This document shows, piece by piece, positions 12,471-53,135 of a stretch of 63,014 nt of DNA. The stretch comes from a virus (Duplodnaviria; Heunggongvirae; Uroviricota; Caudoviricetes). The notes beneath the pieces were generated by a model. That model made no database searches and was not told the DNA's origin. It saw only the letters and a list, made by a program, of their open reading frames with translations. The DNA lies in the IMG/VR virus record IMGVR_UViG_3300045988_147415, one strand, 5' to 3'. How positions within the stretch are numbered: position 1 is the first letter of the stretch; every line of letters begins with the position of its first letter. The translations under genes and the position numbers were made by a program.

Positions 12471-13412
12471 TTAACTAACAATCCAGTCCGTAGCAACAAC
12501 ATCCTCTGGAGCTAAATCAATCGCATGGATTTTCCCATCCCGGATGGTGCGCCAGTGCTTTCGTGATCCACCTTCGGGCCATACCCATACACCTTCAGGC
12601 CAGGATGCTCGACGGCATACGATTGCATACCCTGTTTTAATCCTCTCTCTCGCGGTATGCAACGACAGGTTTGCCTTTGGACTTTCAGGTACAGGATGGT
12701 GAATGGCCTGAAACAGCCCCATTTTGGGGTGATACCAGCGTTTATTACGTGGTTCTGCCTCCGACATCACCTGCTTAAAGGCTTTCCGGAAGGGGGCCAG
12801 GGCCACAATGGAGCGTCGCGCAAGCAAACCATCTGGAGTTAAAAACTCATGCGTATCGGTGGGAATCCGGAAAGCGTTGACCAGGTTGCGACATTTGGCT
12901 TCAGTCAGGCCACATTTCGCCGCCAGCTGGCGGTAGCCAATGTAGCCTTCCGGAATATTGCCTTTCTTGATTTGCTCGACGGTTTCAGCGACTTCGGACA
13001 CTTGTGCCGATACTTCGGCTACCTGGGCATTAACGGCGTTGATCCGGCGTTCATGCTCAAGATGCATTTGCGCCATTTCAGCCAGGATTTCGGCTTTTGA
13101 TTTTAACTGTACCCGGGCATTCTCCAGTTCGCGCCAGCGGTCCACCAGCCGGGCGGTAAATTCGGGAGAAAGCTGTGCGACGACAATGATACTGTCACGC
13201 TTGCCTTGTTCGCCTTCAAAGATGTAAGCCTTGGAAAATCGACGAGGGCCAACTGATTGTTTATTTTCAATTTCCTCAATTTGAGGAAATTGAATGACAC
13301 CACCTTTAGTTAATACTTCAATGGTACGCTTCACATTATCATGACGCTTACCTACCAGTTCCGCGATCTCAATACTGGTCATTGTCGCTTTTTGAGAGAT
13401 GGACAGATTCAT
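12471..13412 (-). CDS. ant: phage antirepressor (N-terminal Rha-type domain, C-terminal Ant domain), immI-like copy 1
   Basis: TSIEIAELVGKRHDNVKR Rha-type N-terminus; 313 aa; paralog of the 51842..52549 gene; preceded by an icd-like ORF as in P1 immI. Confidence 0.75.
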   Translation of the reverse strand: MNLSISQKATMTSIEIAELVGKRHDNVKRTIEVLTKGGVIQFPQIEEIENKQSVGPRRFSKAYIFEGEQGKRDSIIVVAQLSPEFTARLVDRWRELENARVQLKSKAEILAEMAQMHLEHERRINAVNAQVAEVSAQVSEVAETVEQIKKGNIPEGYIGYRQLAAKCGLTEAKCRNLVNAFRIPTDTHEFLTPDGLLARRSIVALAPFRKAFKQVMSEAEPRNKRWYHPKMGLFQAIHHPVPESPKANLSLHTARERIKTGYAIVCRRASWPEGVWVWPEGGSRKHWRTIRDGKIHAIDLAPEDVVATDWIVS

Positions 13413-13627
13413 CAGTGCACCTCCACGCAGTTCATCGGCAGATTCCAGTAATTGAGGATCTCCATCGCATCAAGAGTGAAGCGAGCAGCAAAAATGCAGG
13501 GTTCTTCGGGAAGGTATGAGCGCGCTTCTGCTTCGGTAGCAGCCATGACGCAGATATAGAGGTGTTTTTGGCAGGAATAGAAACGCCAGATAAATTCAGA
13601 ATGAGTTGGGGTAGGGGTAGTAGCCAT
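13412..13627 (-). CDS. icd: Icd-like small protein (host cell division inhibitor-like), immI copy 1
   Basis: 71 aa; EFIWRF...ATE.EARS motif shared with the paralog at 52549..52773; AAGGAGG RBS; translationally coupled to ant. Confidence 0.5.
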   Translation of the reverse strand: MATTPTPTHSEFIWRFYSCQKHLYICVMAATEAEARSYLPEEPCIFAARFTLDAMEILNYWNLPMNCVEVH

Positions 13628-13689
13628 AATGGCAGCCTCCTTTTGCTAATTTAAGGAGCTACCGCGTGAGGTTCCAATCTCAATGGCGG

Positions 13690-13790
13690 TAGCACTGACT
13701 GGGTTGGAACTACCGGCGCAAAAGGGAACCGGCCTGCCTTTCGGCAGCCCAGCCAGCACTACCATTGATCTCTGAGCTAAACGCTACGTA
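13690..13790 (-). ncRNA. candidate c4-like antisense regulatory RNA (tRNA-like features), immI copy 1
   Basis: Minus-strand transcript carries GUUCCAAC complementary to GAUUGGAACC sites both upstream and about 42 nt before the icd start; a UAGCUCAG...GGUAG D-arm-like segment suggests RNase P-type processing; boundaries approximate. Confidence 0.3.
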
Positions 13791-13811
13791 TGGCTGTGCG
13801 ATGGCATGACA

Positions 13812-13835
13812 CAAAAAAAGACGCTTTCGGCGTCT
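13812..13835 (-). terminator. Rho-independent terminator upstream of the c4-like region
   Basis: Hairpin AGACGC-TTTCG-GCGTCT followed on the minus strand by UUUUUU. Confidence 0.5.
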
Positions 13836-13940
13836 GTGTCGCCTTTTGCATTATCCGGGGTTCCAATCCCGGCACCCGTTTTTCTAAGGTGCCGTAGAAA
13901 TATACCCCACGATAATGCCAGGGCGCAACAGTCAGTATTT

Positions 13941-14109
13941 TATGCTTTGGCGGATTTCTTCCGGGCTTGCTTGCAGGCGTAGGCCATTGCTTTAGCTTTC
14001 ACTTCATCCAGCTTCCCGGTGATCACTTCTTTTCCGAGAGTGACAAACCAGTCATAGCAACCGCCAGTAATGTTCTTGATTTGAAAGTTGAGGTAGCGAA
14101 CCGTCATTT
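13941..14109 (-). CDS. possible small protein (55 aa)
   Basis: ATG preceded by GGGGGTG RBS; MTVRYLNFQIKNITGG...; under the ORF-track length cutoff. Confidence 0.3.
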
Positions 14110-14426
14110 TGACACCCCCAGCGCGAGTAAAGAATGCAGATTATCGCGTGAGTGGTGGACGAAGAGTGATGGTAAAAGACTGTAGTTGTTCATAGTGTAG
14201 TGACTCCTTGCTTTCGGAGCCGCCATTGACTGTTCCACGGTCTGGTGGCGGCGCAATAAAGGCTGGAACACCGTGAGTCAACGGGGGCTTTTCAGCCACC
14301 TATATTGCACCGCCATAGGTATAGCGGCGGCAATAATACGAAAAACTAAACAGTTTGTCTCAAAAAGTTGACCGGTGTGCCAATCGGTAGTGAATGTACA
14401 TCGGGGAAATTTACAATTCAACTTAA

Positions 14427-14450
14427 AATGTTAGAAAACTAATTTATCAA
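14427..14450 (-). promoter_or_regulatory. operator-like motif (TTGATAAATTAGTTTTCTAACATTT on minus strand)
   Basis: Instance of the recurrent TTTCTAACA motif, overlapping the 3' end of the ref-like gene. Confidence 0.35.
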
Positions 14451-15017
14451 TTCAATCGCCATCTGATACAACGCCATTTCATCGGCATTGTGCCGTATGA
14501 AATCTGCTTTTCCGCCTATTTTTCCATCAGCATGAACAGGGACCAGCCAGGGATATTGTTCTCGGACCTCGGCTGGCGCTGCGTACTGGTGGTGCCATTT
14601 ACACAAAGGGAGGACATATTTATGCGCGTTCTCTGCCGTTCTCCCGAAGATATGGTGCAGGGATACTACTGGGCTATGTTGCCCGTGAATATGGCAGGCA
14701 ATGCAGGGGAGAGTACCGATAGCGGTCTGTATCCGGCGTTCATCGGCTGTGAGTGATCTGCCCTTCAGGCCGCGTGACGTGCGTGTTTTTTTGGGCGGAG
14801 CGGATACAGCTTTATCTTTTCTCCGCTGTTCATATTGCTTTGCTTTTTCAATTTTCTTTTGCCGATATTCAGGCGATGCGGCTTTTTCTCTCGCTCGCTG
14901 CTGCTGGCGTTGAGCTTGTTGAAGGCGCTTTGCCCTTTGTTCCTCTCGCCAGGCCGGGTCAGCCAATTTTTGCATGGCTTTTTGTCTCTGTTTCTCCCAA
15001 TAACTCTGTTTCTGCAT
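14439..15017 (-). CDS. ref: Ref-like HNH-family nuclease with a highly basic disordered N-terminus
   Basis: About 75 aa Lys/Arg/Gln-rich N-terminus then a Cys/His-rich core (CIACHIHG...HHIFGR...LPLCKWHH); size and architecture fit P1 Ref; operator motif in its promoter. Confidence 0.5.
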   Translation of the reverse strand: MQKQSYWEKQRQKAMQKLADPAWREEQRAKRLQQAQRQQQRAREKAASPEYRQKKIEKAKQYEQRRKDKAVSAPPKKTRTSRGLKGRSLTADERRIQTAIGTLPCIACHIHGQHSPVVSLHHIFGRTAENAHKYVLPLCKWHHQYAAPAEVREQYPWLVPVHADGKIGGKADFIRHNADEMALYQMAIELIN

Positions 15018-15076
15018 GATGGCAGTCTCTTACTTTTCAACGATTTTTCTATGATTGATCAAAATGGTTAGATATT

Positions 15077-15099
15077 CAAAATTGATTTTCTAACACAAA
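15077..15099 (+). promoter_or_regulatory. operator-like motif AAAATTGATTTTCTAACACAAAA upstream of the ref-like gene
   Basis: Recurrent motif about 60 bp upstream of the ref-like start. Confidence 0.4.
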
Positions 15100-15289
15100 A
15101 CATTAATATCATTCCTGATAACTGTTTGGAGGACATGATGCTTATAGCTTTAAGTGCGATCCACCAGCCATCTGTGAATGAAATTGGCCTGTTCTATGTG
15201 TTGTTTTTCGGGGCGTTGGCGCTACTTGAGCTTGGTATTGAGCTTTTCGCAGTGCTTATGTTTTGCGTCACGATTTTGGGGAAATTTTG

Positions 15290-15901
15290 ATGGTGAAACG
15301 TGTTTTGAAAATTTACATCGCGGGGCCGATGACTGGTTATCCAGATTACAACCGTGCTGCGTTTAATGCGAAAGCGAGCGAGCTGATGGCTGAAGGGCAT
15401 ATCGTTCTGAATCCAGCTGTGTTACCTGGTGGCCTTTGTCAGAGTGAATACATGGATATTTGCCTGGCAATGGTGCGTTCTGCTGATGCGATCTACTTGC
15501 TCAATCGATGGGAGGAATCGATTGGTGCTCGTGCAGAGCACGCGCTGGCTGAAAAGCTGGGGCTGACTGTAATTTATGAGTCACCAACCAACATTGAATG
15601 CCAGGTTGCTCCGCATATTTACCGGGAACTGGTCAATGCACTGCGTGATATCGCTGCTGTATATCACGGTACAGAACAGCTTCGTGAGCGTTTAGCCCAT
15701 ACCATTTCCTATTACCTGTCTTTATCTCATGAGCACAAGCTCCGCCAGAAGGTAATGATCAAATTTATCATGAGGTTATCGAAATCCCTGGCAAACGCCG
15801 ATCCAAAGAATCCATTACCGAAAGAGGCAATGAATTACCTGAAGTCCTGCAACGTTGTTTCTGAAGATGGCGTTCTTTTGGTTAGAAGGAGTTCTGCGTG
15901 A
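15290..15901 (+). CDS. DUF4406-like (nucleoside 2-deoxyribosyltransferase-fold) protein
   Basis: N-terminal KIYIAGPMTGYPDYN...LNPA pattern; start at internal ATG. Confidence 0.45.
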   Translation: MVKRVLKIYIAGPMTGYPDYNRAAFNAKASELMAEGHIVLNPAVLPGGLCQSEYMDICLAMVRSADAIYLLNRWEESIGARAEHALAEKLGLTVIYESPTNIECQVAPHIYRELVNALRDIAAVYHGTEQLRERLAHTISYYLSLSHEHKLRQKVMIKFIMRLSKSLANADPKNPLPKEAMNYLKSCNVVSEDGVLLVRRSSA

Positions 15902-16215
15902 GCTGGCGGGGATGGGGAAGGGCAGAAATCATGATACTCCGCCAGTGCGCCGGAACTATGACGGTCGAGAGTATTGGGAAGCTGATCGGTCGTACCGGTG
16001 ATGCCGTCAGGACTAAAGCGCGGGAGTTGGGGATCAGCATGATTCTGAAAGGAGACTTTCATCCGTCAGCCAAATACCGGCAGAGCGATATAGAACTGGC
16101 ACGGCAGCTTCATCAGTGTGGTGTTCCCCGCCGTGAGATCGCGGAAAAACTCGAAATGCCCCTGGGCATGATTAATCAGTACGTTTATTTCGAAAGGAGA
16201 GTGTATGAAGTCTGA
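15898..16215 (+). CDS. small HTH-type DNA-binding protein
   Basis: GTG start overlapping the upstream stop; C-terminal HTH-like segment (RREIAEKLEMPLGMINQYV). Confidence 0.45.
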   Translation: MSWRGWGRAEIMILRQCAGTMTVESIGKLIGRTGDAVRTKARELGISMILKGDFHPSAKYRQSDIELARQLHQCGVPRREIAEKLEMPLGMINQYVYFERRVYEV

Positions 16216-16693
16216 AGGTTTAACGCCCGCACAACTGGCAGAGCGTAACGCTGAGTATGTAACGGAAATTTCCCGACTTGAGAAAGCGTGTGCTGCGCTG
16301 GCGGCGGAGAATGCTGGGCTGAAACATGCAATGGCTGTAACTCTTGAGCATGTGTCGGTCACGGATGCAGGGCAGGCCGGAGTTGCTGCAATGATTATCA
16401 ACGATGCCCTGCACCACAGCGAAACTCCAGCCACCGATGCTTTTCTGGCTGAAATTCGTGCGACGGCTCGCAACGAGGGGATTAACTATACCGCAAGCCG
16501 TCTTGCTGCTGCTTTCAACCACGGATTTATCAATAAGTCTTTACGTGAAGTTTTCGACGTTACGCGCATGATTCTGTCAGCGAAAGAAGAGTTGGCTAAT
16601 GAACCGCACCCGATTGATGGCCTGTCCGGTGAATATGCGGAGAAATCCCTTGAAGAATGGGCGGAACAGATTCGCAAAGGAGCTGACAAGTGA
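16205..16693 (+). CDS. hypothetical protein (coiled-coil; paralogous C-terminal domain shared with 17109..17894)
   Basis: AALAAENAGLK coiled-coil and shared ...TPATD.FL.E...AR.EG....A.R.LAA...GFI... segment. Confidence 0.45.
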   Translation: MKSEGLTPAQLAERNAEYVTEISRLEKACAALAAENAGLKHAMAVTLEHVSVTDAGQAGVAAMIINDALHHSETPATDAFLAEIRATARNEGINYTASRLAAAFNHGFINKSLREVFDVTRMILSAKEELANEPHPIDGLSGEYAEKSLEEWAEQIRKGADK

Positions 16694-17100
16694 AGAGGAT
16701 GATTTTTGTAGCGGCATTGCTGACCATTACCCAACAGGCGCAGGCTTCAGCAGTTATTGTGGCATCTACCGCCGCGACCACGGCTGCTGTAGCTGCTGCG
16801 AACTCTGCGAATATCGCAAACCAACAGTCACAGCGTGCTGCCAATGCATCAGCCAGTGTTCACCCGATCGCCATTAAGACCGGCAAGAAAAATATAGGTT
16901 TCATAACATGCGGCAAACGTTCTGACGAGGCTGTAGGTTCACTTGGATGTACGGTATATGGGGATAGTGAGAGTAGAGAAATTCCATGGAAAACGTGGCC
17001 CGGATACGTTCTCGGATCGAAGCTCCCTGCCAGCTACGAAGTAAATGCCGTATCGTTTGATCACTATAACGGCGTGGCAACTGTCTATTTTACATACTGA
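16690..17100 (+). CDS. secreted protein of unknown function
   Basis: Signal peptide MKRMIFVAALLTITQQAQA; Ala-rich low-complexity region; translationally coupled. Confidence 0.45.
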   Translation: MKRMIFVAALLTITQQAQASAVIVASTAATTAAVAAANSANIANQQSQRAANASASVHPIAIKTGKKNIGFITCGKRSDEAVGSLGCTVYGDSESREIPWKTWPGYVLGSKLPASYEVNAVSFDHYNGVATVYFTY

Positions 17101-17108
17101 GGCTCCGC

Positions 17109-17894: not shown

Positions 17895-18139
17895 GTAATA
17901 CCGCACGACTACAGCTTGGTTTTTCACCGCTATCAAAAACCATCGTGTTGGCAAAAATGCGTGACTTAGGGGATGGAACAAAACGTCGTGTCGGCAATGA
18001 TCGCGGTCGTGATGTAACCAACGAGGCCGCACAACTCGTTTGGCATCTAGTCATGGCTGAAGGCGGTGAAATTAATTGGGAGCTGGATGATGGTTCTCGC
18101 ATGGTATTGAAGGCAGAAAAGCAGGAGCCACCACAGTGA
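17891..18139 (+). CDS. hypothetical small protein
   Basis: 4-nt overlap with the upstream stop (translational coupling). Confidence 0.4.
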   Translation: MSNTARLQLGFSPLSKTIVLAKMRDLGDGTKRRVGNDRGRDVTNEAAQLVWHLVMAEGGEINWELDDGSRMVLKAEKQEPPQ

Positions 18140-19614: not shown

Positions 19615-19640
19615 TCAAATCATTTACGCACTCAAAATAC

Positions 19641-19672
19641 GTTAGAACATTGATTTTAGTTTTCTAACATAT
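19641..19672 (+). promoter_or_regulatory. operator-like motif pair (GTTAGAACATTGATTTTAGTTTTCTAACATAT)
   Basis: Recurrent motif with a partial inverted half-site, about 40 bp upstream of the 19712 gene. Confidence 0.4.
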
Positions 19673-25843: not shown

Positions 25844-25863
25844 TACTGTATAAATGAACAGTA
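25844..25863. promoter_or_regulatory. LexA (SOS) box TACTGTATAAATGAACAGTA upstream of humD
   Basis: Perfect CTGT-N8-ACAG LexA consensus about 20 bp upstream of the humD start. Confidence 0.7.
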
Positions 25864-25882: not shown

Positions 25883-26272
25883 ATGGGCTTCCCTTCTCCT
25901 GCGGCGGATTATGTTGAAAGCAGAATTTCTCTTGATCAGCAACTAATCAGGCATCCATCAGCGACATACTTCATGCGGGCGGCAGACAGCCATCACCGTG
26001 AGGGAATATTGCAGGGTGCTTTGCTGGTGGTTGATTCCTCGCTTACTCCGGTTGATGGCTCTCTGCTTGTGTGCGCTATGGAGGGCGAATATCGCATAAA
26101 GAGATACCGAAAGTATCCGCGCCAGCACCTGGAGGATTTAAGCACCGGGAAGAAAGAGGCGTTACCAGTGGATGACGATGGATACACGGGCAGTAATGCT
26201 GTTTTTGGTGTGATCACTCATGTCATCAATGATGCCCGAAGTGGGGAGTTTGATGATTGTCCGGTTATTTAA
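25883..26272 (+). CDS. humD: UmuD'-like protein (HumD)
   Basis: Begins at GFPSPAADYVE, matching the post-cleavage UmuD' N-terminus; S24 peptidase fold residues retained. Confidence 0.85.
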   Translation: MGFPSPAADYVESRISLDQQLIRHPSATYFMRAADSHHREGILQGALLVVDSSLTPVDGSLLVCAMEGEYRIKRYRKYPRQHLEDLSTGKKEALPVDDDGYTGSNAVFGVITHVINDARSGEFDDCPVI

Positions 26273-32334: not shown

Positions 32335-32355
32335 ATGTTAGAAAACTAAATCGAG
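32335..32355 (-). promoter_or_regulatory. operator-like motif (CTCGATTTAGTTTTCTAACAT on minus strand) just upstream of the candidate repressor gene
   Basis: Recurrent motif 10-30 bp before the 32364 start; weaker variants at about 32251-32270 and 32036-32056. Confidence 0.4.
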
Positions 32356-32363
32356 TAGGAATA

Positions 32364-33401
32364 ATGAGTAAGAAGTCGATCGAGAAAGAGTACAAACGGT
32401 TCCTGCAAACCGCTGAACGGTGGAAAGAGCTGGTGGTCGCAAACTCTGTTTTCCATGATACCAGTTATGCTGGCGAGGAATTCCGCCATGTTGCATTAAC
32501 GCATGACCAAAACATATTAGAAGAAGCTGAAAAATGTCTTGCTGAATGGAAAGCCTTCGTTGACATGTGCCGCGATGCCGACGGCAAAGCGTCGAACATT
32601 GTTGAGTCTGTATATTCTCCGATCCCATTCATCATTGAGGACACCAATCAAAGCACGCATGTCGTTGTGCAAAGCGCTACAACAACACGTACATTTACAC
32701 GTGAACAATTGCTAAAAAAATACGACAAAATCATAAAGAAAAGCCTGAAAAACAGGGTTTTTTCTCAAATTGTAGGTGCTCTTGAAGAAGAACAGCGCTT
32801 CTTTGAAGCTGAGCCTGAAGGCGAGATCTACCGGGCGCGTAAAGAGGCATATACAGATGTTGTGCTGACAACAAACATCGAAGGCAGCAATGCCCTTTCT
32901 CGCTTTAGAGTTGGCGCACATGGCGCATTGGTTTTCGCAAGACTACCGAAGACAACGATCCCCGTTGTCAATAATGTTGGTGAACGCCGGAGCATTACAA
33001 TTTATTCTGGCGTCGAATCGGTACCTTGCAGCCTTCTCGGCGATTTTAACTTATATCGTGTTCGTGACCTGGAAAAACACCAGCCAAGCTACGTTGCGAA
33101 GTCGTACATCTTAAGGAACATCGATATTCGCAATGAAAGCCTTAAGCAGAAATCCGCTAAGATGCTGGAGGATGCCGATCCGGCTATTCGCCATATCATT
33201 GAGCGTAAGATACGTACATCACGTGAAGCAATGGCAAGGCTGGATAAAATGGATCTGGAATTGTTAGACGTAATGATGGCCTCTGGAGACGACCTGACCG
33301 GCATTAAACTGAATGAAGCTCGTAAAAAATACGGCAAAGCAATCGAAGAACGTTACGGATACACATTCCCCCAAACGCAGTACGCCGCGAAGCTCTGGTA
33401 A
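32364..33401 (+). CDS. hypothetical protein; candidate C1-type master repressor by position
   Basis: 345-aa ORF divergent from cre across the lox site and convergent with pacB, the topology of c1 in P1; no sequence-level confirmation. Confidence 0.35.
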   Translation: MSKKSIEKEYKRFLQTAERWKELVVANSVFHDTSYAGEEFRHVALTHDQNILEEAEKCLAEWKAFVDMCRDADGKASNIVESVYSPIPFIIEDTNQSTHVVVQSATTTRTFTREQLLKKYDKIIKKSLKNRVFSQIVGALEEEQRFFEAEPEGEIYRARKEAYTDVVLTTNIEGSNALSRFRVGAHGALVFARLPKTTIPVVNNVGERRSITIYSGVESVPCSLLGDFNLYRVRDLEKHQPSYVAKSYILRNIDIRNESLKQKSAKMLEDADPAIRHIIERKIRTSREAMARLDKMDLELLDVMMASGDDLTGIKLNEARKKYGKAIEERYGYTFPQTQYAAKLW

Positions 33402-38220: not shown

Positions 38221-38296
38221 TGGTGGCCCCTACCGGATTTGAACCGGTGACCGTGCGATTATGAGTCGCCAGCTCTAACCACTGAGCTAAAGGGCC
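38221..38296 (-). tRNA. tRNA-Ile (anticodon CAU, ileX-like; Met cannot be excluded)
   Basis: 76-nt cloverleaf GGCCCTTTAGCTCAGTGGTTAGAGC...GGCGACTCATAATCGC...GGTTCAAATCC...GGGGCCACCA, closely resembling E. coli ileX. Confidence 0.8.
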
Positions 38297-38433
38297 AGAT
38301 TACTGTTAATTCCGCTTACGCTTTTTGCCAGAACCGCGTAAGGCTTTTGCCGCTTGCTCGGCCCCATATGCAACCACCAGCAAAAATAAAAATGTCCAAC
38401 CAGGGTTCTTATCGGCAAACGCCCAAAAATTCA

Positions 38434-38667
38434 TCACTTACAGCCACCTTGCATTTCCTTGGATAATTCATTGATTTTAGTGCTCAATAAGTAATCAAAG
38501 TAAAGATAAAACACAAAAGTAACGATAGTGCTTAAAGTGTCTGAAATTGCGTATTTCAGCTCAGGAAGCATGACAAAGCAGACAAATAGCGGAAGAAATA
38601 ACTGCACTATGCACAGGCTCTTCTTCCACAACCATCTATATCTGAAGTCTGACAACAAAAACTCCAT
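38434..38667 (-). CDS. possible small membrane protein inside the tRNA cluster
   Basis: AT-rich ORF with two hydrophobic helices; start ambiguous and RBS weak. Confidence 0.3.
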   Translation of the reverse strand: MEFLLSDFRYRWLWKKSLCIVQLFLPLFVCFVMLPELKYAISDTLSTIVTFVFYLYFDYLLSTKINELSKEMQGGCK

Positions 38668-38799
38668 TGCTTGAAACTTTATTAGGTTGCGGTGCCTGGT
38701 GCCTCCAGGTGACGTTAACCAGTTAACAATTAACGCCGGGATGTTTGACTTAACCACTAAGGAGGATTGTTTTAACTGTTCCGCGTGCGCTTAGCCGCA

Positions 38800-38920
38800 T
38801 TCACCGCAATGGTAAGAGCACTTGGCTGGCTGGGCGGCGATGACGCCTGTACGCATTTGGTGATCCGGTTCTGCTTCCGGCATTCGCTTAATTAGCCAAA
38901 TACTCTTAACGTTGCACTGG
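38800..38920. repeat. hairpin trailer element, copy 1 (immediately 3' of tRNA-Ser)
   Basis: Conserved TCACCGCAATGGTAAGAGCACTTGG paired with CCAAATACTCTTAACGTTGCACTGG about 70 nt away. Confidence 0.4.
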
Positions 38921-39004
38921 CGGAGAGTAATGGAATCGAACCATCATCGCTTGCGCAATGGGACGGTTTTCAAGACCGCTTGAGCACCATGCTCCCTACT
39001 CTCC
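38918..39004 (-). tRNA. tRNA-Ser (anticodon UGA), long variable arm
   Basis: 87 nt; acceptor GGAGAGT/ACTCTCC, anticodon loop CTTGAAA, T-loop TTCGATT, CCA encoded. Confidence 0.75.
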
Positions 39005-39129
39005 AGTGATTGTGGCGACCGGTGCTGATCTCCGGCTTGCGGTTATTTCAGACTCTCACGGGCGTTTAATTGCCCCGCCGAACAGCTCTTTTCCGCAATA
39101 GCTGCAATGTCTTTCGCGCATCAGCCTGC

Positions 39130-39240
39130 GCATTCACCACAATGTTGAGAACACTGGTTGTCACGCTGCAACGCAACATTTATTCGTAGATTGGGATATG
39201 ACCCCGTTACGCCGGTGTTCTCAACGTTGTAGTGCCGGTT
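39130..39240. repeat. hairpin trailer element, copy 2, with a duplicated fragment of the tRNA-Thr 3' end
   Basis: CACAATGTTGAGAACAC ... GTGTTCTCAACGTTGTAG 17-bp inverted repeat followed by GTGCCGGTTACGG. Confidence 0.4.
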
Positions 39241-39366
39241 ACGGTTCCGGCCAGGCCTCTTCCTCAACGGGGTGTTCTCCATACGGACTACCGTTTATTG
39301 GTCGTTCCTGCGGTTTATGTTGTGAAGCCAGATGCTTATCTTCTGGTTGCTTCTAGGAGCTGCACT

Positions 39367-39452
39367 TCATCACAACGGTAAGAGCATTTATGGCTCGCAT
39401 CGCGGGAAAAAGCCCACGGTAGAGAGTCGAACTCTACAAATGCTCTTACCTG
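39367..39452. repeat. hairpin trailer element, copy 3 (immediately 3' of tRNA-Thr)
   Basis: GGTAAGAGCATTT ... AAATGCTCTTACC 13-bp inverted repeat enclosing two internal hairpins; no valid cloverleaf on either strand. Confidence 0.4.
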
Positions 39453-39458
39453 TTGTGT

Positions 39459-39534
39459 TGGTGCCGGTTAACGGGATCGAACCGCTGACCATTCGCTTAC
39501 AAAGCGACTGCTCTACCAACTGAGCTAAACCGGC
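39459..39534 (-). tRNA. tRNA-Thr (anticodon UGU)
   Basis: 76 nt; acceptor GCCGGTT/AACCGGC, D-arm GCTCAGTTGGTAGAGC, anticodon loop TTTGTAA, T-loop TTCGATC, CCA encoded. Confidence 0.8.
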
Positions 39535-39538
39535 AATT

Positions 39539-39625
39539 TGGTGGGGAGTGATGGAGTCGAACCACCCGAGTCGCAATGACAGTAGATTTACAGTCTACCC
39601 CGCTACCCCTACGGACTAACTCCCC
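39539..39625 (-). tRNA. tRNA-Tyr (anticodon GUA), long variable arm
   Basis: 87 nt; anticodon stem-loop GTAGACTGTAAATCTAC as in E. coli tRNA-Tyr; acceptor GGGGAGT/ACTCCCC; CCA encoded. Confidence 0.7.
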
Positions 39626-39630
39626 TAAAT

Positions 39631-39707
39631 TGGCGATGGTGGGTGGATTCGAACCACCGACCGACAGCTTAGAAGGCTGCTGCTCTATCCTACTGAGCTA
39701 CACCATC
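39631..39707 (-). tRNA. tRNA-Arg (anticodon UCU, reads rare AGA)
   Basis: 77 nt; acceptor GATGGTG/CACCATC, anticodon loop CTTCTAA, T-loop TTCGAAT, CCA encoded. Confidence 0.8.
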
Positions 39708-47100: not shown

Positions 47101-50100
47101 TCAACATCATCTGCCACTTTACCGCCAGCTACTTTTGGCAAGGCATCAGCAATAGCTTTTACCTGGTCTGCAAGCTCAACGGGGAACTGGAATGTAATTG
47201 CACTGGCATACAGATCCGGGTCTATAGCAACCTTGTCCATGTCACGGATGATGGAGAAGATGAAATCATCCGGTTTGTCGTTAGTGATATGCCCGTTTTC
47301 ATCGACTGTCAGCTCATCATTGCGACTTAACTCCTGAGCACGCTTACGAAGCTCTTCATAAGCAGTCTCCTGCTCCCCTGTCATCGGGATCTGCAAGGTG
47401 TTCTCGATGATGTCGGGAATTTTAACCGTCGCTCCGACATCTGCAGCAGTCTTCAGAGTGGTCCAACGATGGAAAATACCACGCAGGCCGTCAAGGTTCT
47501 GGAAGCCCACCAGCCCCTGCTTCTCTTCCACTTCCCCGGAAATTTTCTGGACCTGAACTGTGGCTGTTTTGCCAAACACACGAACGAAATCATCAGGCGT
47601 AATGATGCCCATGCGCATCCACTCTTCCTGCGGAATGACAGTAGACAGCATGTTGAAGGCATCAATCGGACTGTTCACCAGCGGAGTTGCCGTCAGCATG
47701 ACTACACCACGCCCGTTGTTGCGTTTCATCATGTACGCAGCTTTTACAGCCATGTCGCGGGCCATCTTGGATACTGCCGGGTTAGGCAAATATGCCAGTT
47801 GTCCCGCTTCACGCCCGGCATTAAAGGAGTTGCGGTAGTTATGCCCCTCGTCGGCAATCACGCTATCGAAGTTCATATCCTCAAAGTACGGGATATTCTG
47901 CTTCTTCGTTGTACCGGTATTCGCGGCCTGATCCTTAATCTTGTTCTTCTTCTGCGCATCACGGTGTTTACCGGACGCCAGGTCAAGACGCCCCATTTCC
48001 ACAGCATTAAAGACAGCTTGCTGTGAGTTCTCCTCGATGGTTTTTTCTCGTAGCGGGATAGACGCGAATTGTTCTTTTGTCATGATGACCGTTCGCCAAT
48101 TTGACGACGGGATCATGTTCATACGCTGAACGATAACGGCGCTGGCGGACTCTTTCACAACATTTCTGGTAAGAGGCTGCCCGTTACTGTCGAGGCGTGG
48201 TTCGCCATTTTCATCAAGCACCGGCGAGGTCAGAATATTTCCGCTGTCATCACGAACTTCATCCAAACCGATAAACATCATATTGGCGAAGGCATCAGCA
48301 CTGTAGAAACTCTGTGCCTCGTGATACCAGTTCTGATAAACCGCCTTCGGAACAACAATACACGTGCGTTTAGTGCGACCTGTTTCGAAGTTATACGCCT
48401 CAAGCGCAAGCGCGGTCGTGGTTTTACCCAGCCCGGTACCAAATCCCATGATGCCGCGCCCATCTTCTGACAAGCGCCGAACTTCTTCATTCTGATAAGT
48501 AAGAGGAATGCGCTTTCCACTAAGCCCTTCCAGGCCAAGCGGTGCGTCAGAATGCGTGAACGGAATGAAACCATTGAATGCGTCGTTATACTCGCGGGCT
48601 ATCTGATCAGCCTGCGGGTGAGTGCGTAACCAGTCGTTAAAACTAACTTCCAGTTGAGCAATTTTATCCAGGTACTCGTTAGCGTTCTGCCCACGCGGTT
48701 TAACACCGTTCAGGTAGTTTTCTAACTGGTTCAGGAAGCCGTCTTTATTGTTGGCCTTCTTGAACTCATTCCCGTTTTTGCCGTTTACGGTTCGTAGCTG
48801 ATAGCCGGTAAATACCCCGTCCTTACCTTCGTAATCGTCCGGAGATACCAGAATGCCATCGACGACCTTCAGATCAGGTTCAGTGTATTTAAACTCGTCA
48901 TAGCCCTGCTCTGCCAGGAACTCTTTTATCAAGCGGCGATCCAGCCAGCGGGCATTCAGATTAACGGTGACTTTATTTAGTGGCGTGAAAATACGTTTCT
49001 CTTCGATTTTCGCCAACTGACGCTCAAAGTTCGCTTTCTGCTCACCTGTTGACGCATCACGCCAGCCCATCAGCAATGCTGTTTTGGTTGCAATATCGCC
49101 GCTGGTGGCGCGGTCCATCGGCAGCAGGCAGCCATACCCATCAATAGCGATATCATCAAATTTCGCCAGGTATTCAAGGGCCGCGTCGTCGTCCTCTGGC
49201 AGTTCACCAGCAAACGCCTCACGAAAGTCTCCCAGCGTTATAGGATTAAGGGCTACATCACTGAAAAGATGTGCTATCACTTGTTCAGGACGTGTAAAGT
49301 CAATACCGGCAGCACCATCCGTTACATCAAGTCGCCCTGCCAGAAGGTCAGAAGTGGAACCATCCTGTTTCACATTGCCAGTGAACGTCATCCAGTTTTT
49401 AGCGCCAGCTTCAGCAAGCCCATTCAGCTTAATGGCGTGCGGTGGTCCATACTTCGCAACTTCTGCTGCCGCCAGGCGGGATGCATCTGCCAGTTTGTCA
49501 TCAACGTTCACACCCAGGTTACGCAAATCAAGTGCCTTGTTGATCAACTGACCTATCAGCGCACCGCGCATAACGCGCTCCCTGTCTTTTTCTCGCTGCT
49601 TGCCAGCAAAGCGAATCATTGCTGCCACTTCATCACTGACAACCGATGGATAGTCGGACGCGATCGCCGATATCTGGTCCCATGACAAAGCCAGAATCCC
49701 GTTTGTTGACTGGAACGCGATCTGCAGATCGCCAAACGTCGAAACACCATATCGACTTACATCAAGCGCGGAGGATTTGGTTGTCGTGTCCTTAACCCAT
49801 TTCAGACCATCAAACTCATGCCAGATACCGCCTACAAGGCGTTTATCGCCCACTTTCGCACCCTGCCATGCCTGAGTAGTTACGCCGAGCAAATCCCAAT
49901 TGATGCGACTATCAAAGCGACGAGATAGCGCGGTTTTCATCGACTCATTGGATACACGACCGTCTTTTTTCACCACCAGGGTATTGCGGAAGCTGGTACG
50001 TTCCATGTCGCCGTAAACAAATCGCTTCCCTTCGGTTGTAAACCATTTTCCTTTGAGGAAGGTATCCCAAAGGACGTTTGCCGATTTGAGTGTTGAATCA

Positions 50101-50975
50101 TCCGTGTCGGGGATCATCTCCAGGAAGGTTTCCGGGTGTTTACGCAATACCCATACGTCCACCACGGTATCTGTACCGGATTCGCTGAACGTACCAGAAG
50201 GCATACGATGTGCGCCCAAAAATTCCGCTTTACGGCTGACTTTATCGCGCAATTTTTTATATTTCGCACCATCGGTCATGCCATTCGGCACCACCAATAC
50301 GATAAGCCCACCAGGCTTAACCTTGTCGATCGTGCGCAGCACAAAGTAATTGCCAACGTTCTTCTCGTTTGCATATGCCGGATCAAGCCCGGCGACACCG
50401 GAACGCCCTTCACCAAACGGTACGTTACCAACAGCGTGATCATACATTGCGTCTTTCGCCGCCAGCGCCTCAAACGCCCCGATATTCACATCGTCTTCCG
50501 GGTGCAAAAGCTGGTTTATTCGACCGGAAATCGGAGACAGTTCGGCGCTGGTCATTATCATGCCCTGCCGTTTTGTCTCCTGGAAAATACCTGTGCCCGC
50601 TGATGGTTCCAGTACGTGCCCGCCATCAATACCGTAGTCAGCAAACAGATCCCATATACCTTCAGCCATAAACTGTGGCGTGTAGTATTCGTATTGGCTG
50701 CCCTCACCATCTGTCAGGCCGCCTTCACCGGTATACCCGGCAAGAATCTGACGTTGTTCGTCAGTTAATTTCGCCCCATCGAAGCCGGGCGGAAGGGAAT
50801 TAAGAAGATCTACTGCGGCATTATTTGCTGCCCGGCGTGTTTTCTGAATACTGACGCCATCGGCTTTCCTGACGCCAAAGGTCGCAACAGCACGTAATTT
50901 ATGCAACCGACTAACAATTTCAATCAGTTCGCCTAAGCTGGAGGCTTCACTGATTGAATGAAGTAGTTTGTCCAA
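44139..50975 (-). CDS. darB: 2278-aa DNA methyltransferase-helicase fusion (DarB-like putative antirestriction protein)
   Basis: N-terminal SAM-MTase motif I (LEPSAGTGIF) and N6-adenine motif IV (NVPFGEG); central SF2 helicase motifs (GLGKTT, DEGHNYRN, LTATPLVNSP, QRNGRGARVGS); AGAGGGGGA RBS. Confidence 0.8.
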   Translation of the reverse strand: MDKLLHSISEASSLGELIEIVSRLHKLRAVATFGVRKADGVSIQKTRRAANNAAVDLLNSLPPGFDGAKLTDEQRQILAGYTGEGGLTDGEGSQYEYYTPQFMAEGIWDLFADYGIDGGHVLEPSAGTGIFQETKRQGMIMTSAELSPISGRINQLLHPEDDVNIGAFEALAAKDAMYDHAVGNVPFGEGRSGVAGLDPAYANEKNVGNYFVLRTIDKVKPGGLIVLVVPNGMTDGAKYKKLRDKVSRKAEFLGAHRMPSGTFSESGTDTVVDVWVLRKHPETFLEMIPDTDDSTLKSANVLWDTFLKGKWFTTEGKRFVYGDMERTSFRNTLVVKKDGRVSNESMKTALSRRFDSRINWDLLGVTTQAWQGAKVGDKRLVGGIWHEFDGLKWVKDTTTKSSALDVSRYGVSTFGDLQIAFQSTNGILALSWDQISAIASDYPSVVSDEVAAMIRFAGKQREKDRERVMRGALIGQLINKALDLRNLGVNVDDKLADASRLAAAEVAKYGPPHAIKLNGLAEAGAKNWMTFTGNVKQDGSTSDLLAGRLDVTDGAAGIDFTRPEQVIAHLFSDVALNPITLGDFREAFAGELPEDDDAALEYLAKFDDIAIDGYGCLLPMDRATSGDIATKTALLMGWRDASTGEQKANFERQLAKIEEKRIFTPLNKVTVNLNARWLDRRLIKEFLAEQGYDEFKYTEPDLKVVDGILVSPDDYEGKDGVFTGYQLRTVNGKNGNEFKKANNKDGFLNQLENYLNGVKPRGQNANEYLDKIAQLEVSFNDWLRTHPQADQIAREYNDAFNGFIPFTHSDAPLGLEGLSGKRIPLTYQNEEVRRLSEDGRGIMGFGTGLGKTTTALALEAYNFETGRTKRTCIVVPKAVYQNWYHEAQSFYSADAFANMMFIGLDEVRDDSGNILTSPVLDENGEPRLDSNGQPLTRNVVKESASAVIVQRMNMIPSSNWRTVIMTKEQFASIPLREKTIEENSQQAVFNAVEMGRLDLASGKHRDAQKKNKIKDQAANTGTTKKQNIPYFEDMNFDSVIADEGHNYRNSFNAGREAGQLAYLPNPAVSKMARDMAVKAAYMMKRNNGRGVVMLTATPLVNSPIDAFNMLSTVIPQEEWMRMGIITPDDFVRVFGKTATVQVQKISGEVEEKQGLVGFQNLDGLRGIFHRWTTLKTAADVGATVKIPDIIENTLQIPMTGEQETAYEELRKRAQELSRNDELTVDENGHITNDKPDDFIFSIIRDMDKVAIDPDLYASAITFQFPVELADQVKAIADALPKVAGGKVADDVDEAEEDGAGGLVSTRTSKVVKTAFSEHPTHVEIRASIELEAEILKAIAAAGIDMQQVSHPIPPKYAALIENLREGLKNGKQIVFIDEKAQHQKLRRIIASALQMPEQEIGIINATTVSQAGGIKLKKVNKPTEPTPNKNGEYKEGAWETYYSKLAQYEDYLSAKNDAGLEGMEGIAADYNEGRTRIIICNKKAEVGINLHIGTTDIHHLTLPWTPASIDQRNGRGARVGSPQEKVNVHYYCGKGTFDDFRLDTLKRKKDWIKMVMTSDMSEIANGDADDADERAIMLAANPEERRAIMARQAQEREERLKLKAQREANNALDIYLKAANAAGKDIGMMETELKSAMEQIEYYQRNLDDLIKAGTNRNGQKYALEQLSSYRKRARVLRFAITRAKDADTIMKRSRGDVERAIKSGVLDISIDVIQNPQEYMRTDKNILLHKGSYYRAVIDDRETTAIVRVEKIDGEKAQYICRIAWLDRASRYARSPGSIVTLPFDSVIEAVTFEEGVAESRATAARGVQCHQLSTSLTRDQFYDAIRNGVMKVTTGQPGRAWGGEPGIKYWAYRTDDGQIALSSTYDGMIGQKIGRTSDIAPEQWIYPDINNEALKREVAKIQASDNPLNIVDGEGFLQALYGYDYIQGMQAWGAQATMDDVAQEFENWMAGRGLSGRSLNKVTSEDILSLFRKPSGEGLESFWRTVLAYRLFQGRMKAFSNIDDIERMFNQVKIAKIKTKIEKTRSALVAWRDALFEQYKSLSDADGWAALEQLANNGVDGAKLAIVQADNPLESPAAQWIKVGAVINAFDEKYISKDDFADAVSVNRLVEMATRRARELKDGDYVNELPDTLKSATWQDYVSLKNGGATESEIAERLEQAESKREEQAAVAEARADEAANDDYIIVVNDKPIRAKARVRGRWWSVSEDVGAVYLIADQPGSSTIRNAKDAIKKIGGRFWNFEANPVADVNFDRPAWMVSTRYSVDELRKIIADAA

Positions 50976-51126
50976 AGGATTTCCCCCTCTAAACCGTAAA
51001 AAATTCCGCTATGCGGTACGATTGAGAGGGTATGGAGAATGTTATTTTCAGGGGGACGATACTACCGTCAAAATCACATACTCCCCATAGTTTGCCTACT
51101 TATTAACCCATGACCGGGAGAAAAAT

Positions 51127-51612
51127 ATGGCAAACATTGAACCTCGCTGGCTAATTGAAGCCCGTAAGCACATTGGCCTGACTGAAATAAAAGGCGCTAA
51201 ACACAACCCTGAAATCGTTCAGTTCTGGCGCGACATCAAGCGCGGCGGAATTAAAGACGATGAAACGCCGTGGTGCGCAGCATTTGTCGGTGCAATGCTG
51301 GAACGTGTAGGCATCCGCTCAACAAGATTTGAGTCGGCAAAATCCTATCTGGATTGGGGCGAGAAATTAGATACACCGGCATACGGATGTATCGTTGTAT
51401 TTACCCGCGTAGGCGGTGGGCACGTAGGCTTCGTTGTCGGACGCCGCGCCAATGGCGATCTGCTTGTCCTGGGTGGGAACCAGGGGGATGCGGTTAATAT
51501 TCGCGCATTCCCAACATCAAGAGTGTCTGGCTATCGCTGGCCTGCTGGCGAACCACGCAATACCGCTCTGTTACCAGTCGGAGACGCAGCAACCTCAACT
51601 AATGAGGCATGA
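51127..51612 (+). CDS. TIGR02594-family protein (CHAP/NlpC-P60-like putative peptidoglycan peptidase)
   Basis: Conserved WCAAFV...GCIVVF...GGGHVGFVVG pattern (Cys/His dyad). Confidence 0.5.
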   Translation: MANIEPRWLIEARKHIGLTEIKGAKHNPEIVQFWRDIKRGGIKDDETPWCAAFVGAMLERVGIRSTRFESAKSYLDWGEKLDTPAYGCIVVFTRVGGGHVGFVVGRRANGDLLVLGGNQGDAVNIRAFPTSRVSGYRWPAGEPRNTALLPVGDAATSTNEA

Positions 51613-51637
51613 AAAAAGCCCCGGCCAGGCCGGGGCA
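51611..51637 (-). terminator. Rho-independent terminator after the split antirepressor gene
   Basis: GCCCCGGCC-AGG-CCGGGGC followed on the minus strand by UUUUUU. Confidence 0.5.
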
Positions 51638-51644
51638 TCACGCT

Positions 51645-51845
51645 TCAAGTCACGATCCAATCATTACCGACTATATCAGCCGTCGATAAATCAACTTCCC
51701 GGATCTGGAGTCCATTAATACAAAACCATCCGGTAGTAGAGTAATTATCAGGCCAGGCCCATACACCAACACTCCATGCTTTACGGCGGCACACTTCAGC
51801 CTGTCCTTCCCTGATTTTTTTTACCGCCTGCATGATGTCCATCAC
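51645..51845 (-). CDS. antirepressor C-terminal domain encoded as a separate ORF (immI-like copy 2)
   Basis: 66 aa aligning with the last 60 residues of the intact antirepressor (...VCRRKAW..GVWAWP...DWIVT); start overlaps the upstream stop (ATGA) in a different frame. Confidence 0.5.
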   Translation of the reverse strand: MMDIMQAVKKIREGQAEVCRRKAWSVGVWAWPDNYSTTGWFCINGLQIREVDLSTADIVGNDWIVT

Positions 51846-52549
51846 TCACCTCCCCAACCGATCACCTGGAATTGCCCCATTTTGGGGTGATACCAGCGTT
51901 TTCCTCGGTGTTCAGCCTCCGACATCATCCGGTTAAAAGCATTCATGAAGGGAGATAAGGCCACGATGGAACGACGCGACAATACCCCCTCTGGAGTTAA
52001 AAACTCATGTGTATCGGTGGGAATCCGGTAAGCGTTGACAAGGTTGCGGCATTTGGCTTCGGTCAGGCCGCATTTTGCCGCCAGCTGGCGGTATCCAATG
52101 TAACCATCTGGCATGTTGCCCTTCTTGATTTGCTCGACGGTTTCTACCACCTGGCTAACCTTTGACTCAACAACATGAAGCCGCTTTTGCTGCTGAACTG
52201 CATTTGCAGCCATTGCGGCGATCATCTCTATTTCGGTCAACGGCTGGCGTGCTTGTTCTTCCAGTTCGCGCCAGCGGTCCACCAGCCGGGCGGTGAATTC
52301 GGGAGAGAGCTGCGCAACGACAATAATGCTGTCTCGTTTGCCTTGCTCGCCTTCGAAGACGTAAGCCTCGACACTACGGCGTAGTCCTAAGTTATTGATT
52401 TTTTCGAAAACCTGCAATGCAGGAAGTTGAATAACTCCAGATTTAGCCAGGCGCTCTATTGATATTTTTACGTTATCTGGACGACTTCCCACCAGCTCCG
52501 CGATCTCAATGCTGGTCATTGATGGCTTTTCAAGAATGCAGATATCCAT
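51842..52549 (-). CDS. ant: antirepressor N-terminal Rha-type portion (immI-like copy 2; gene split relative to copy 1)
   Basis: TSIEIAELVGSRPDNVK Rha N-terminus; high similarity to 12471..13412 over about 230 aa, then terminates early. Confidence 0.65.
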   Translation of the reverse strand: MDICILEKPSMTSIEIAELVGSRPDNVKISIERLAKSGVIQLPALQVFEKINNLGLRRSVEAYVFEGEQGKRDSIIVVAQLSPEFTARLVDRWRELEEQARQPLTEIEMIAAMAANAVQQQKRLHVVESKVSQVVETVEQIKKGNMPDGYIGYRQLAAKCGLTEAKCRNLVNAYRIPTDTHEFLTPEGVLSRRSIVALSPFMNAFNRMMSEAEHRGKRWYHPKMGQFQVIGWGGE

Positions 52550-52773
52550 CAGTGTGCCTCCGCAATGCCGGGATTGGTAATATTGCGATACCAGGGATTA
52601 GTGTTTGGTTGTGGGGAAGTAGAGAAACGACCAGTAAGAACACCATGCTGATCAGGGATCAGAGAACGGGCTTCTTTTTCGGTTGCGGCAATTGCGAAGT
52701 GATCGCAGTGTTTTTGCAGGGAGTGGAAACGCCAGATGAATTCTGGACGTGAGCAAGGATTGGCATTAACCAT
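52549..52773 (-). CDS. icd: Icd-like small protein, immI copy 2
   Basis: 74 aa; paralog of 13412..13627 (PEFIWRFHSLQKH...ATEKEARS); GAGG RBS. Confidence 0.5.
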   Translation of the reverse strand: MVNANPCSRPEFIWRFHSLQKHCDHFAIAATEKEARSLIPDQHGVLTGRFSTSPQPNTNPWYRNITNPGIAEAH

Positions 52774-52829
52774 AGTTACGGCCTCACTAACAGGTTTAAC
52801 AACCTGCTACCCGCTGTCAAACAGGTGGC

Positions 52830-52920
52830 AGGACGTGACAGGGTTGACAGACTGGCGTTAGTGAAACCAGCAGGCCGAAGCCTCCCCATCACGCCCCACC
52901 ATAATTCGGGCGTAACGCGG
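52830..52920 (-). ncRNA. candidate c4-like antisense regulatory RNA, immI copy 2
   Basis: CUGUCAAC element complementary to UUGACAGC sites located about 41 nt before the icd start and again about 170 nt upstream; same geometry as copy 1 with a different sequence; boundaries approximate. Confidence 0.3.
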
Positions 52921-53116
52921 TTTACGGACACAAAAATACCGCAATATCGGAAATCTGCGGTTGTCCGCACTAACATTCAGGCTGTCAAACCTGGTCGCAG
53001 AATTTGCTACGACGGCATGAATATAAGCCTGAAAACATGGAAGATCAACTAAAAATTTCAGCAATGGATGACTTCAGTCGATGATGCAGATCATACATTC
53101 CGATTTAGAAACAGCA

Positions 53117-53135
53117 AATTAATTTTCTAACACAG
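53117..53135 (+). promoter_or_regulatory. operator-like motif AAATTAATTTTCTAACACA upstream of the immI copy 2 operon
   Basis: Recurrent motif about 340 bp upstream of the icd start. Confidence 0.4.

Follow-up and report, generated by a model that had tools for sequence, protein, structure and literature searches.

Two paralogous immI-type antirepressor cassettes with different predicted antisense RNA specificities in a D6-like, P1-family prophage

The immI regions of bacteriophages P1 and P7 are textbook material. Both run in the order promoter(s), sites a1 and b1, the antisense RNA C4, sites a2 and b2, icd and ant, with an overlapping stop and start, and the mechanism of P1 C4 has been published (PMC8198154). 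P7 differs from P1 at two bases in a and two in b, and the two phages are described as heteroimmune at immI through these few differences (PMC6906374; Citron and Schuster 1990, as cited in PMC8198154). P1 carries one such module. The present study concerns a stretch of viral DNA of 63,014 nucleotides (nt) (IMG/VR record IMGVR_UViG_3300045988_147415; "the window" below is this whole stretch), in which two cassettes with the P1/P7 order, termed cassette 1 and cassette 2, were compared with the described systems. All parts of both cassettes are encoded on the minus strand.

Two other systems are closely related to immI. For Gifsy-1 of Salmonella, Hershko-Shalev et al. 2016 (PMC4825925) describe a short RNA, IsrK, that activates translation of the read-through isrK-STnc1160-anrP transcript, and they relate IsrK to seqA of P4 and STnc1160 to P4 CI. 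In P4, the CI RNA belongs to the C4 family, is processed from the leader of the operon that it controls, and has complementary sites upstream and downstream, an arrangement that the cassettes here would share. According to PMC4825925, CI acts by premature transcription termination of the replication genes, whereas in the window the downstream site covers the ribosome-binding site of icd-ant. The Rfam models isrK and C4 detect relatives of seqA and CI (PMC10111431).

It is likely that the window carries two paralogous immI-type modules that work as follows. Each would form one transcription unit, consisting of a promoter, a leader of the IsrK/c4-a1b1 type with a1 and b1, a hairpin and U-run, C4, the sites a2 and b2, icd and ant. 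The C4 RNA would be cut out of this same transcript and would then pair with its own messenger RNA, at b2 through a hairpin loop element (b') and at a2 through a single-stranded element of the 3' junction (a'). Since b2 overlaps the ribosome-binding site of icd, this pairing would block icd translation, and the block would shut off ant by translational coupling and polarity, keeping the antirepressor silent in the lysogen. Cassette 2 would do so with exactly the specificity of P1, and cassette 1 with a different specificity and with a strong terminator after b1.

Searches with Rfam models at their gathering thresholds (C4, 45 bits; isrK, 50 bits; c4-a1b1, 46.7 bits) identified a full-length member of the C4 family, whose fold has a basal stem, two hairpins and a single-stranded 3' junction, in each cassette (Table 1). 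Mature C4-2 (52900..52824, 77 nt) is base for base the P1 c4 RNA, annotated there as misc_RNA, and C4-2 together with a1, b1, a2 and b2 of cassette 2 is identical to the elements of P1 that were defined by experiment and are annotated in NC_005856 as C4 and C4 binding sites. DNA identity between P1 and cassette 2 is 93% from the promoter -10 region to the 5' part of icd and then ends. Alignment to the 77-nt C4 of P1 puts the predicted mature C4-1 at about 13763..13685, and C4-1 folded alone takes the C4 shape (-46.4 kcal/mol). The leader of cassette 1 passes the isrK model, which has three hairpins with an intrinsic terminator as the last, and the leader of cassette 2 passes the c4-a1b1 model. 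The cassette 2 leader also has a sub-threshold isrK match (43.5 bits at 52932..53013) that takes in the hairpin and U-run after b1, and the cassette 1 leader has a sub-threshold c4-a1b1 match (22.4 bits at 13852..13905). Because each leader cross-matches the family of the other, isrK and c4-a1b1 describe one and the same leader element, and yet isrK lies outside clan CL00128. In cassette 1, a terminator scan identified a strong intrinsic terminator after b1, with a stem at 13835..13819 followed by U7.

Both a' and b' of each C4 match two sites, one upstream of C4 (a1, b1) and one downstream (a2, b2), and a1 of cassette 1 sits in a hairpin loop. The b2 site ends 11-12 nt before the icd AUG in both cassettes and in P1, while a2 ends 41-44 nt ahead of it, and the distance from a1 down to a2 is 168-189 nt. 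An unbiased search for any 7-mer present twice with its own reverse complement in between returned exactly the a and b sets, as three triples in cassette 1 and two in cassette 2, compared with a mean of 0.014-0.018 triples in shuffled leaders. Elsewhere in the 63-kb window there was neither another a..b target pair nor a mixed one.

An earlier note on this DNA had proposed two paralogous cassettes with an icd-like open reading frame (ORF) and a Rha-type antirepressor each, arranged in the geometry of P1 c4. The family assignments and identities of the proteins (NF033153, phrog_63, 66% and 45%; see below), the Rfam C4 matches and the order a1/b1, C4, a2/b2, icd, ant are in agreement with this, as are the spacings that it gave and the fold comparison with P1/P7 c4 that it suggested, in that both regions belong to the C4 family and isolated C4-1 takes its shape. 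Its single element complementary to two identical sites is real and corresponds to a', with an exact match of 7 nt rather than 8-10, and the second set, that of b', whose downstream site overlaps the ribosome-binding site, had been missed.

The pairing was followed in a sample of 80 viral-contig loci with relatives of Icd1 and 30 with relatives of Icd2, together with D6, P1 and P7, which gave alignments of 10 distinct P1-type leaders and 32 distinct IsrK-type leaders; the Icd2 search of viral contigs reached close relatives only, and P1-type contigs were thinly sampled. In the P1-type alignment 100% of cells were paired and eight pairs were compensatory, whether C4 was compared with a2/b2 (15 pairs) or with a1/b1 (14 pairs); slid controls for this alignment gave 25-49% paired. 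The IsrK-type alignment had 99.4% (a2/b2) and 98.8% (a1/b1) of cells paired, and 7 of 15 pairs were compensatory. All three copies of each element change together across homologous loci, the site positions relative to the AUG are fixed across the families, and almost all variable columns of the P1-type alignment are the six recognition sites. Because complementarity has been kept by concerted changes at three sites, the alignments indicate that the pairing is under selection. The doubt raised in the earlier note, that the complementarity might not be conserved in homologous loci, is contradicted by these results (99-100% paired, with 7-8 compensatory pairs of 14-15).

The icd stop and the ant start overlap by one base (UGAUG) in both cassettes, which would couple translation of ant to that of icd. 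Ant1 and Ant2 are 66% identical over 237 amino acids, with near-identical central and C-terminal blocks, and the two Icd-like proteins are 45% identical. The C-terminal 65 residues of Ant1 (residues 249-313; 12471..12665) correspond to the separate 66-amino-acid ORF of cassette 2, a case of domain fusion or fission in these paralogous cassettes. A DUF2829/Tad2-like identity was considered for this domain and ORF and was rejected, with no Pfam match at E<=0.01 and a match to phrog_7385 only. The antirepressors of the Rha/phrog_63 type found here are unrelated to Ant1/2 of P1; a BLASTP comparison of Ant2 with the first 271 amino acids of P1 Ant1 showed no significant similarity (E=0.22). Homology to P1 stops within icd and the antirepressor that follows is unrelated, and therefore the C4-icd front end is a portable regulatory cassette that has here been joined to a different antirepressor.

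Table 1. Features of the two cassettes and associated elements in the window.
Feature	Position	Strand	Evidence and remarks
Cassette 1: candidate promoter, TTGCGC-18 nt-TATATT	13899..13928	-	Read from the sequence; -35 too weak for promoter scan; start near 13892
Cassette 1: IsrK-type leader with a1 and b1, intrinsic terminator at its end	13814..13892	-	Rfam isrK RF01394, 62.5 bits, model positions 1-77
Cassette 1: C4-1 antisense RNA	13682..13769	-	Rfam C4 RF01695, 76.7 bits, full length 1-87
Cassette 1: b', CCUUUUGC	13725..13718	-	Matches GCAAAAGG at b1 (13849..13842) and b2 (13646..13639)
Cassette 1: a', GUUCCAA	13710..13704	-	Matches UUGGAAC at a1 (13866..13860) and a2 (13677..13671)
Cassette 1: downstream targets a2 and b2	13636..13677	-	b2 overlaps icd Shine-Dalgarno sequence AAGGAGG (13642..13636)
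Cassette 1: Icd-like ORF 1, 71 amino acids	13412..13627	-	NCBIfam NF033153, 49.5 bits (cut-off 25); phrog_1426
Cassette 1: antirepressor 1 (Ant1), 313 amino acids, Rha/Ant type	12471..13412	-	Pfam Phage_pRha, 37.5 bits vs 29.9; phrog_63 'anti-repressor Ant', E=2e-63
Cassette 1: G+C-rich hairpin at 3' end, AAAGCCCCGGACAGGCCGGGGC	12441..12465		Direct repeat family D5; paralogous to hairpin at 51615
Cassette 2: promoter-like site, TTGATC-17 nt-TATATT	53020..53048	-	Promoter scan; start near 53013
Cassette 2: leader with a1 and b1, then weak hairpin and U-run	52932..53026	-	Rfam c4-a1b1 RF03163, 54.4 bits at 53026..52974
Cassette 2: C4-2 antisense RNA	52821..52906	-	Rfam C4 RF01695, 68.8 bits, full-length match
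Cassette 2: b', (U)CACUAAC (UCACUAAC)	52864..52857	-	Matches GUUAGUG at b1 (52974..52968) and GUUAGUGA at b2 (52791..52784)
Cassette 2: a', CUGUCAA	52850..52844	-	Matches UUGACAG at a1 (52988..52982) and a2 (52820..52814)
Cassette 2: downstream targets a2 and b2	52784..52820	-	b2 overlaps icd Shine-Dalgarno sequence GAGG
Cassette 2: Icd-like ORF 2, 74 amino acids	52549..52773	-	NF033153, 40.3 bits (cut-off 25); 5' part inside segment 93% DNA-identical to P1 c4-icd
Cassette 2: antirepressor 2 (Ant2), 235 amino acids, Rha/Ant type	51842..52549	-	phrog_63, E=2e-47
Cassette 2: 66-amino-acid ORF	51645..51845	-	40% identity to Ant1 C-terminal domain, E=1e-17; phrog_7385, E=2e-49, function unknown; start overlaps ant2 end
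Perfect copy of 17-nt motif TGTTAGAAAATTAATTT	53116..53132	-	Just upstream of cassette 2 promoters; position of Op51/Oc4 in P1, where it overlaps the upstream promoter
c1-like prophage repressor	32364..33401	+	D6 orf1, annotated 'similar to P1 C1'; phrog_1678; NF041318 weak, 25 bits (cut-off 500)

Several points weigh against the proposed mechanism. In the full leader of cassette 1, a1/b1 are bound in cis to a'/b' in the minimum-energy fold, whereas the centroid shows a free C4 fold, so that for this cassette the predicted balance between cis and trans pairing, and the processing step, would matter. The antirepressors are unrelated to those of P1, the c1-like repressor has no more than a remote similarity to P1 C1 (25 bits), and the action of the antirepressors on this C1 is presumed by analogy. 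Ant1 and Ant2, given their similarity, could be redundant or could have different targets. Finally, the predicted orthogonality of the two modules draws on calculated energies of isolated elements and on the precedent of P1 and P7.

The two folds of the cassette 1 leader parallel the two structures described for IsrK of Gifsy-1, and the likeness goes further. The leader belongs to the same Rfam family and ends in a terminator of the kind that in Gifsy-1 yields a short and a read-through isoform. Downstream of it come a C4/CI-like RNA and then an antirepressor gene, and here too the middle part of the full leader has a predicted cis pairing with the C4 region. Since there is a terminator after b1, a short IsrK-like RNA carrying a1/b1 would be expected from cassette 1, and it may compete for C4-1, as has been shown for IsrK of Gifsy-1. 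It is possible, therefore, that cassette 1 works mainly like Gifsy-1 IsrK or P4 CI, through termination or read-through after b1 and titration of C4-1 by a short activator RNA, and not through a block on icd. This is a serious possibility, albeit short of probable, and it overlaps with translational control of icd rather than shutting it out. In its favor are the isrK match of the leader with the strong terminator and U7 at its end, the predicted cis pairing of a1/b1 with a'/b' in the full leader, which resembles 'structure A' of IsrK (PMC4825925), and the activation of downstream antirepressor translation by short IsrK together with its homology to P4 seqA/CI (PMC4825925). However, b2 of cassette 1 overlaps the icd Shine-Dalgarno sequence as in P1 and covaries with b' just as a1/b1 do, indicating that the downstream translational target is under selection too, and the P1-type leader has the same layout at a sub-threshold score, which argues against a difference in kind between the two leaders.

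Gifsy-1 and cassette 1 also differ in the coupled reading frame. In Gifsy-1 a 45-codon ORF (orf45) that overlaps the C4-like RNA is coupled to anrP, whereas here an icd-like ORF with a b2-covered Shine-Dalgarno sequence lies between C4 and ant. A 39-amino-acid ORF (13765..13646) begins at a conserved AUG in the 5' end of C4-1 and stops ahead of the icd Shine-Dalgarno sequence; cassette 1 thus has no short ORF of the Gifsy type over C4 that is coupled directly to ant, and its ant-coupled ORF is the icd-like gene. No AntQ-type antiterminator was seen beside the cassettes, although no search was aimed at one.

Under the proposed immI-type mechanism, two modules with different a and b elements imply that each C4 should control its own cassette only. 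Between the cassettes, a differs at three of its seven positions and b at most of its positions, which agrees with the statement in the earlier note that the pairing sequences differ as those of P1 and P7 c4 do and exceeds the two plus two differences between those phages; in both comparisons specificity would be set by few bases. Duplexes of the exposed elements were calculated, as RNAduplex comparisons of the whole leader with the whole C4 ignore intramolecular structure and were uninformative. For the cognate duplexes the predicted energy was -24.0 kcal/mol in cassette 1 (C4-1) and -26.8 kcal/mol in cassette 2 (C4-2), compared with -8.8 and -8.9 kcal/mol for the cross duplexes between cassettes and -15.5 and -17.8 kcal/mol for those of P1 with P7. 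Independent control of the two cassettes is the best-supported reading of these results, as a prediction. That the two C4 RNAs cross-react and the cassettes form one regulatory pool is very unlikely. Some base pairs are common to both, as each a element starts with UUG and ends in a similar hairpin context and each b element has Shine-Dalgarno purines at its end, but the cross duplexes (about -9 against about -25 kcal/mol for the cognate ones) are weaker than those between P1 and P7, which do not cross-repress, and the window holds no mixed a..b target. Moreover, the alleles differ between the two cassettes in every two-cassette element compared, namely all 11 IMG/VR contigs with both cassettes, D6, RCS47 and JL22, and the combinations vary by contig.

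A further alternative is that one cassette is a decaying or redundant duplicate with no separate regulatory role. The similarity of Ant1 and Ant2, in particular of their central and C-terminal blocks, and the fact that P1 and P7 manage with one cassette would fit such a view. Against it, all ORFs of both cassettes are intact, both C4 RNAs are full-length family members, and compensatory three-site changes occur in both cassette types, implying selection on pairing. In addition, phage D6, the 11 IMG/VR contigs, RCS47 and JL22 all carry both cassette types, and plasmid records with an IsrK-type leader numbered 348 and those with a P1-type leader 575. A duplicate of this kind is therefore very unlikely. 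The same survey answers the question posed in the earlier note of one versus two cassettes in related genomes, and the two-cassette arrangement is not peculiar to this genome. Lastly, short as the individual matches are (7-8 nt), the notion that the complementarities are chance or local-repeat by-products can be dismissed in view of the shuffled leaders, the fixed positions relative to the AUG and the extensive covariation.

The alleles of the recognition elements in the sample are diverse. Those of IsrK-type leaders were UUGGAAC, UUGGUCU, UUGAGAC, UUGGCGU and UUGGCCU for a and GCAAAAGG, GUCAAAGG, ACUCAAG and GUCUAAGG for b, and those of P1-type leaders were UUGACAG and UUAGCAG for a and GUUAGUG, GAUUGUG, ACGAAUG and ACUUACG for b, with further alleles of the same geometry in phiP27 and an Stx2 phage. 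The sample, though small, contained at least 13 a/b combinations. The a and b alleles reassort independently among close relatives (for example at loci L091, L093, L101, L103, L010, L017 and L033), including natural hybrids with P1 a and P7 b or P7 a and P1 b. The window and D6, which are about 96% identical, differ mainly at the recognition sites, and the specificity allele differs in both cassettes (UUGGAAC in the window versus UUGAGAC in D6 for a of cassette 1, and GUUAGUG versus ACUUACG for b of cassette 2). The six sites are interleaved in the order a1-b1...b'-a'-a2...b2 and are in places only 6-7 nt apart, and therefore a single crossover cannot swap one element alone.

It is conceivable, though we regard it as rather doubtful, that the a/b elements constitute a fast-turning, combinatorial specificity code. 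If so, this would point to diversifying selection on immunity specificity and to a mechanism of concerted change, such as template switching between inverted-repeat copies, and two orthogonal modules could keep an antirepressor inducible even though a co-resident relative shares one specificity. This allele-turnover reading is the part worth following. In a natural variant (L038:2171-2503), a' and a2 have the UUGGAAC type but a1 reads UUGAGAC, so that the upstream site does not fit its own C4, although b1, b' and b2 still agree. In phiP27 (L118 1500..1745) and the Stx2 phage F039 (L119 1500..1745), an IsrK and C4 leader stands directly before a protein of about 215 amino acids with an Icd-like start (MAT.P...), and these lambdoid phages have this single protein in place of separate icd and ant genes. 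The a allele of phiP27, UUGGAAC, is that of cassette 1.

Both cassette regions share about 96-97% identity with the 91-kb Escherichia phage D6 (NC_050154), a circular plasmid prophage related to P1, and the stretch between them has 96-99% identity to D6-like plasmids of E. coli and Salmonella of 89-93 kb. Judged by these matches, the window belongs to a plasmid prophage of E. coli that is D6-like, of the P1 family, and not integrated. D6 has two cassettes at positions corresponding to those of the window, namely orf82/83 between pmgF and ref and orf17-19 between darB and repL. The c1-like gene is placed between the two cassettes in the window. On all these grounds both cassettes are parts of one element; the earlier note was right in assigning them to one prophage, which needs correction only in that it is a D6-like plasmid prophage. 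The product of the c1-like gene, a very distant relative of P1 C1 with a different operator motif, is the presumed target of the antirepressors. The P1 module lies upstream of kilA-repL, whereas cassette 2 lies downstream of repL. The tRNA cargo is unlike between close relatives: the window has five tRNA genes at 38221..39707 (Met, Ser, Thr, Tyr and Arg), and the D6 record annotates three (Ser, Thr and Asn).

In P1 a promoter under a C1 operator and a constitutive promoter stand upstream of c4. Here only the promoter-like site of cassette 2 was returned by the promoter scan, and the other candidate promoters were identified by eye. The cassette 2 site corresponds to P1c4/P51b in the annotation of P1, and the predicted start of cassette 1 coincides with position 1 of the isrK match, a layout that is conserved in homologous loci. 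The motif TGTTAGAAAATTAATTT occurs at 12 sites in the window at <=3 mismatches, compared with 0.44 expected (2777, 2790, 14429, 15079, 19640, 19653, 30926, 32336, 36769, 42171, 53116 and 54323). Copies lie upstream of the c1-like gene (32336..32352) and of the repL-like and ref-like genes, and they often precede genes that are controlled by C1 in P1 (c1, repL, ref and the cre side). The copy nearest to cassette 1 is at 14429..14445, about 540 nt upstream. By analogy with P1, TGTTAGAAAATTAATTT is probably the operator of the D6-type C1 repressor, for which it is the candidate. The operator consensus of P1 C1 itself has no match at <=3 mismatches in the window. Control by LexA, as for the Gifsy antirepressors, was also considered and was rejected, as no CTGT-N8-ACAG box is present near either cassette promoter. 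The sole LexA-box-like sequence in the window, CTGTATAAATGAACAG (25846..25861), lies 22 nt upstream of a UmuD'-like ORF (25883..26272).

The C4 RNA of P1 is reportedly processed by RNase P, and by homology such processing of the two C4 RNAs described here is plausible. The earlier note had seen a sign of it in a tRNA D-arm-like segment, UAGCUCAG...GGUAG (13779..13759). The string exists, but it is neither tRNA-like nor conserved: ARAGORN and Rfam gave no tRNA match there, several homologous leaders lack the segment of 21-22 nt and others have it in variable form, and GGUAG is the 5' strand of the basal stem of C4.

Parts of this arrangement have been reported before. A second antisense-RNA/icd region in D6-like plasmids is on record (PMC6799933), and Venturini et al. 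(PMC6906374) noted that RCS47-like plasmids have one more ant, with two small ORFs, in the interval from pacB to c1, a region confirmed here to be an IsrK-type C4 cassette. The second cassette is already described for pYU39_89, RCS47, pTZ20_1P and JL22, in descriptions that carry no recognition-sequence analysis. No paper analysing the recognition sequences of both cassettes, or their allele diversity, was found in a search that did not extend to the D6 genome paper (Gilcrease and Casjens 2018). Tandems of IsrK and C4 were present in 120 phage records, and both RNAs were annotated in 2 of these 120; the isrK and C4 tandem is common in P1-like plasmids and Stx phages. Three plasmid records (NZ_CP099884.1, NZ_CP122809.1 and NZ_CP057246.1) have two or three places that match the P1-type c4-icd leader, and there may be more than two cassettes per element.

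In conclusion, the locus is a further member of a known and widespread system, and what is new is the two full a/b recognition sets with strong three-site covariation, the exact P1 specificity in one cassette, and the reassortment of a and b between close relatives. For annotation, isrK and c4-a1b1 describe the same leader, and coding-sequence calls have been placed over the C4 gene. The latter include an 'ash family protein' in PLSDB and orf84 of D6, which, like the plus-strand ORFs 13683..13775 and 13790..13897, overlie the C4-1 gene or leader and are probably spurious ORFs on non-coding RNA. The a/b alleles are a natural set of orthogonal RNA-RNA recognition pairs with compensatory evidence and could be used for studying how short kissing interactions set specificity. 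Should the two modules be independent, an incoming or co-resident D6-like element could not have both of its antirepressor operons silenced by a resident relative with which it has one C4 specificity in common; P1, whose c4 is identical to C4-2, is such a relative. Effects of this kind on superimmunity or induction would bear on superinfection immunity, on induction, and on the co-existence in E. coli and Salmonella of P1/D6-like phage-plasmids, several of which carry resistance genes.

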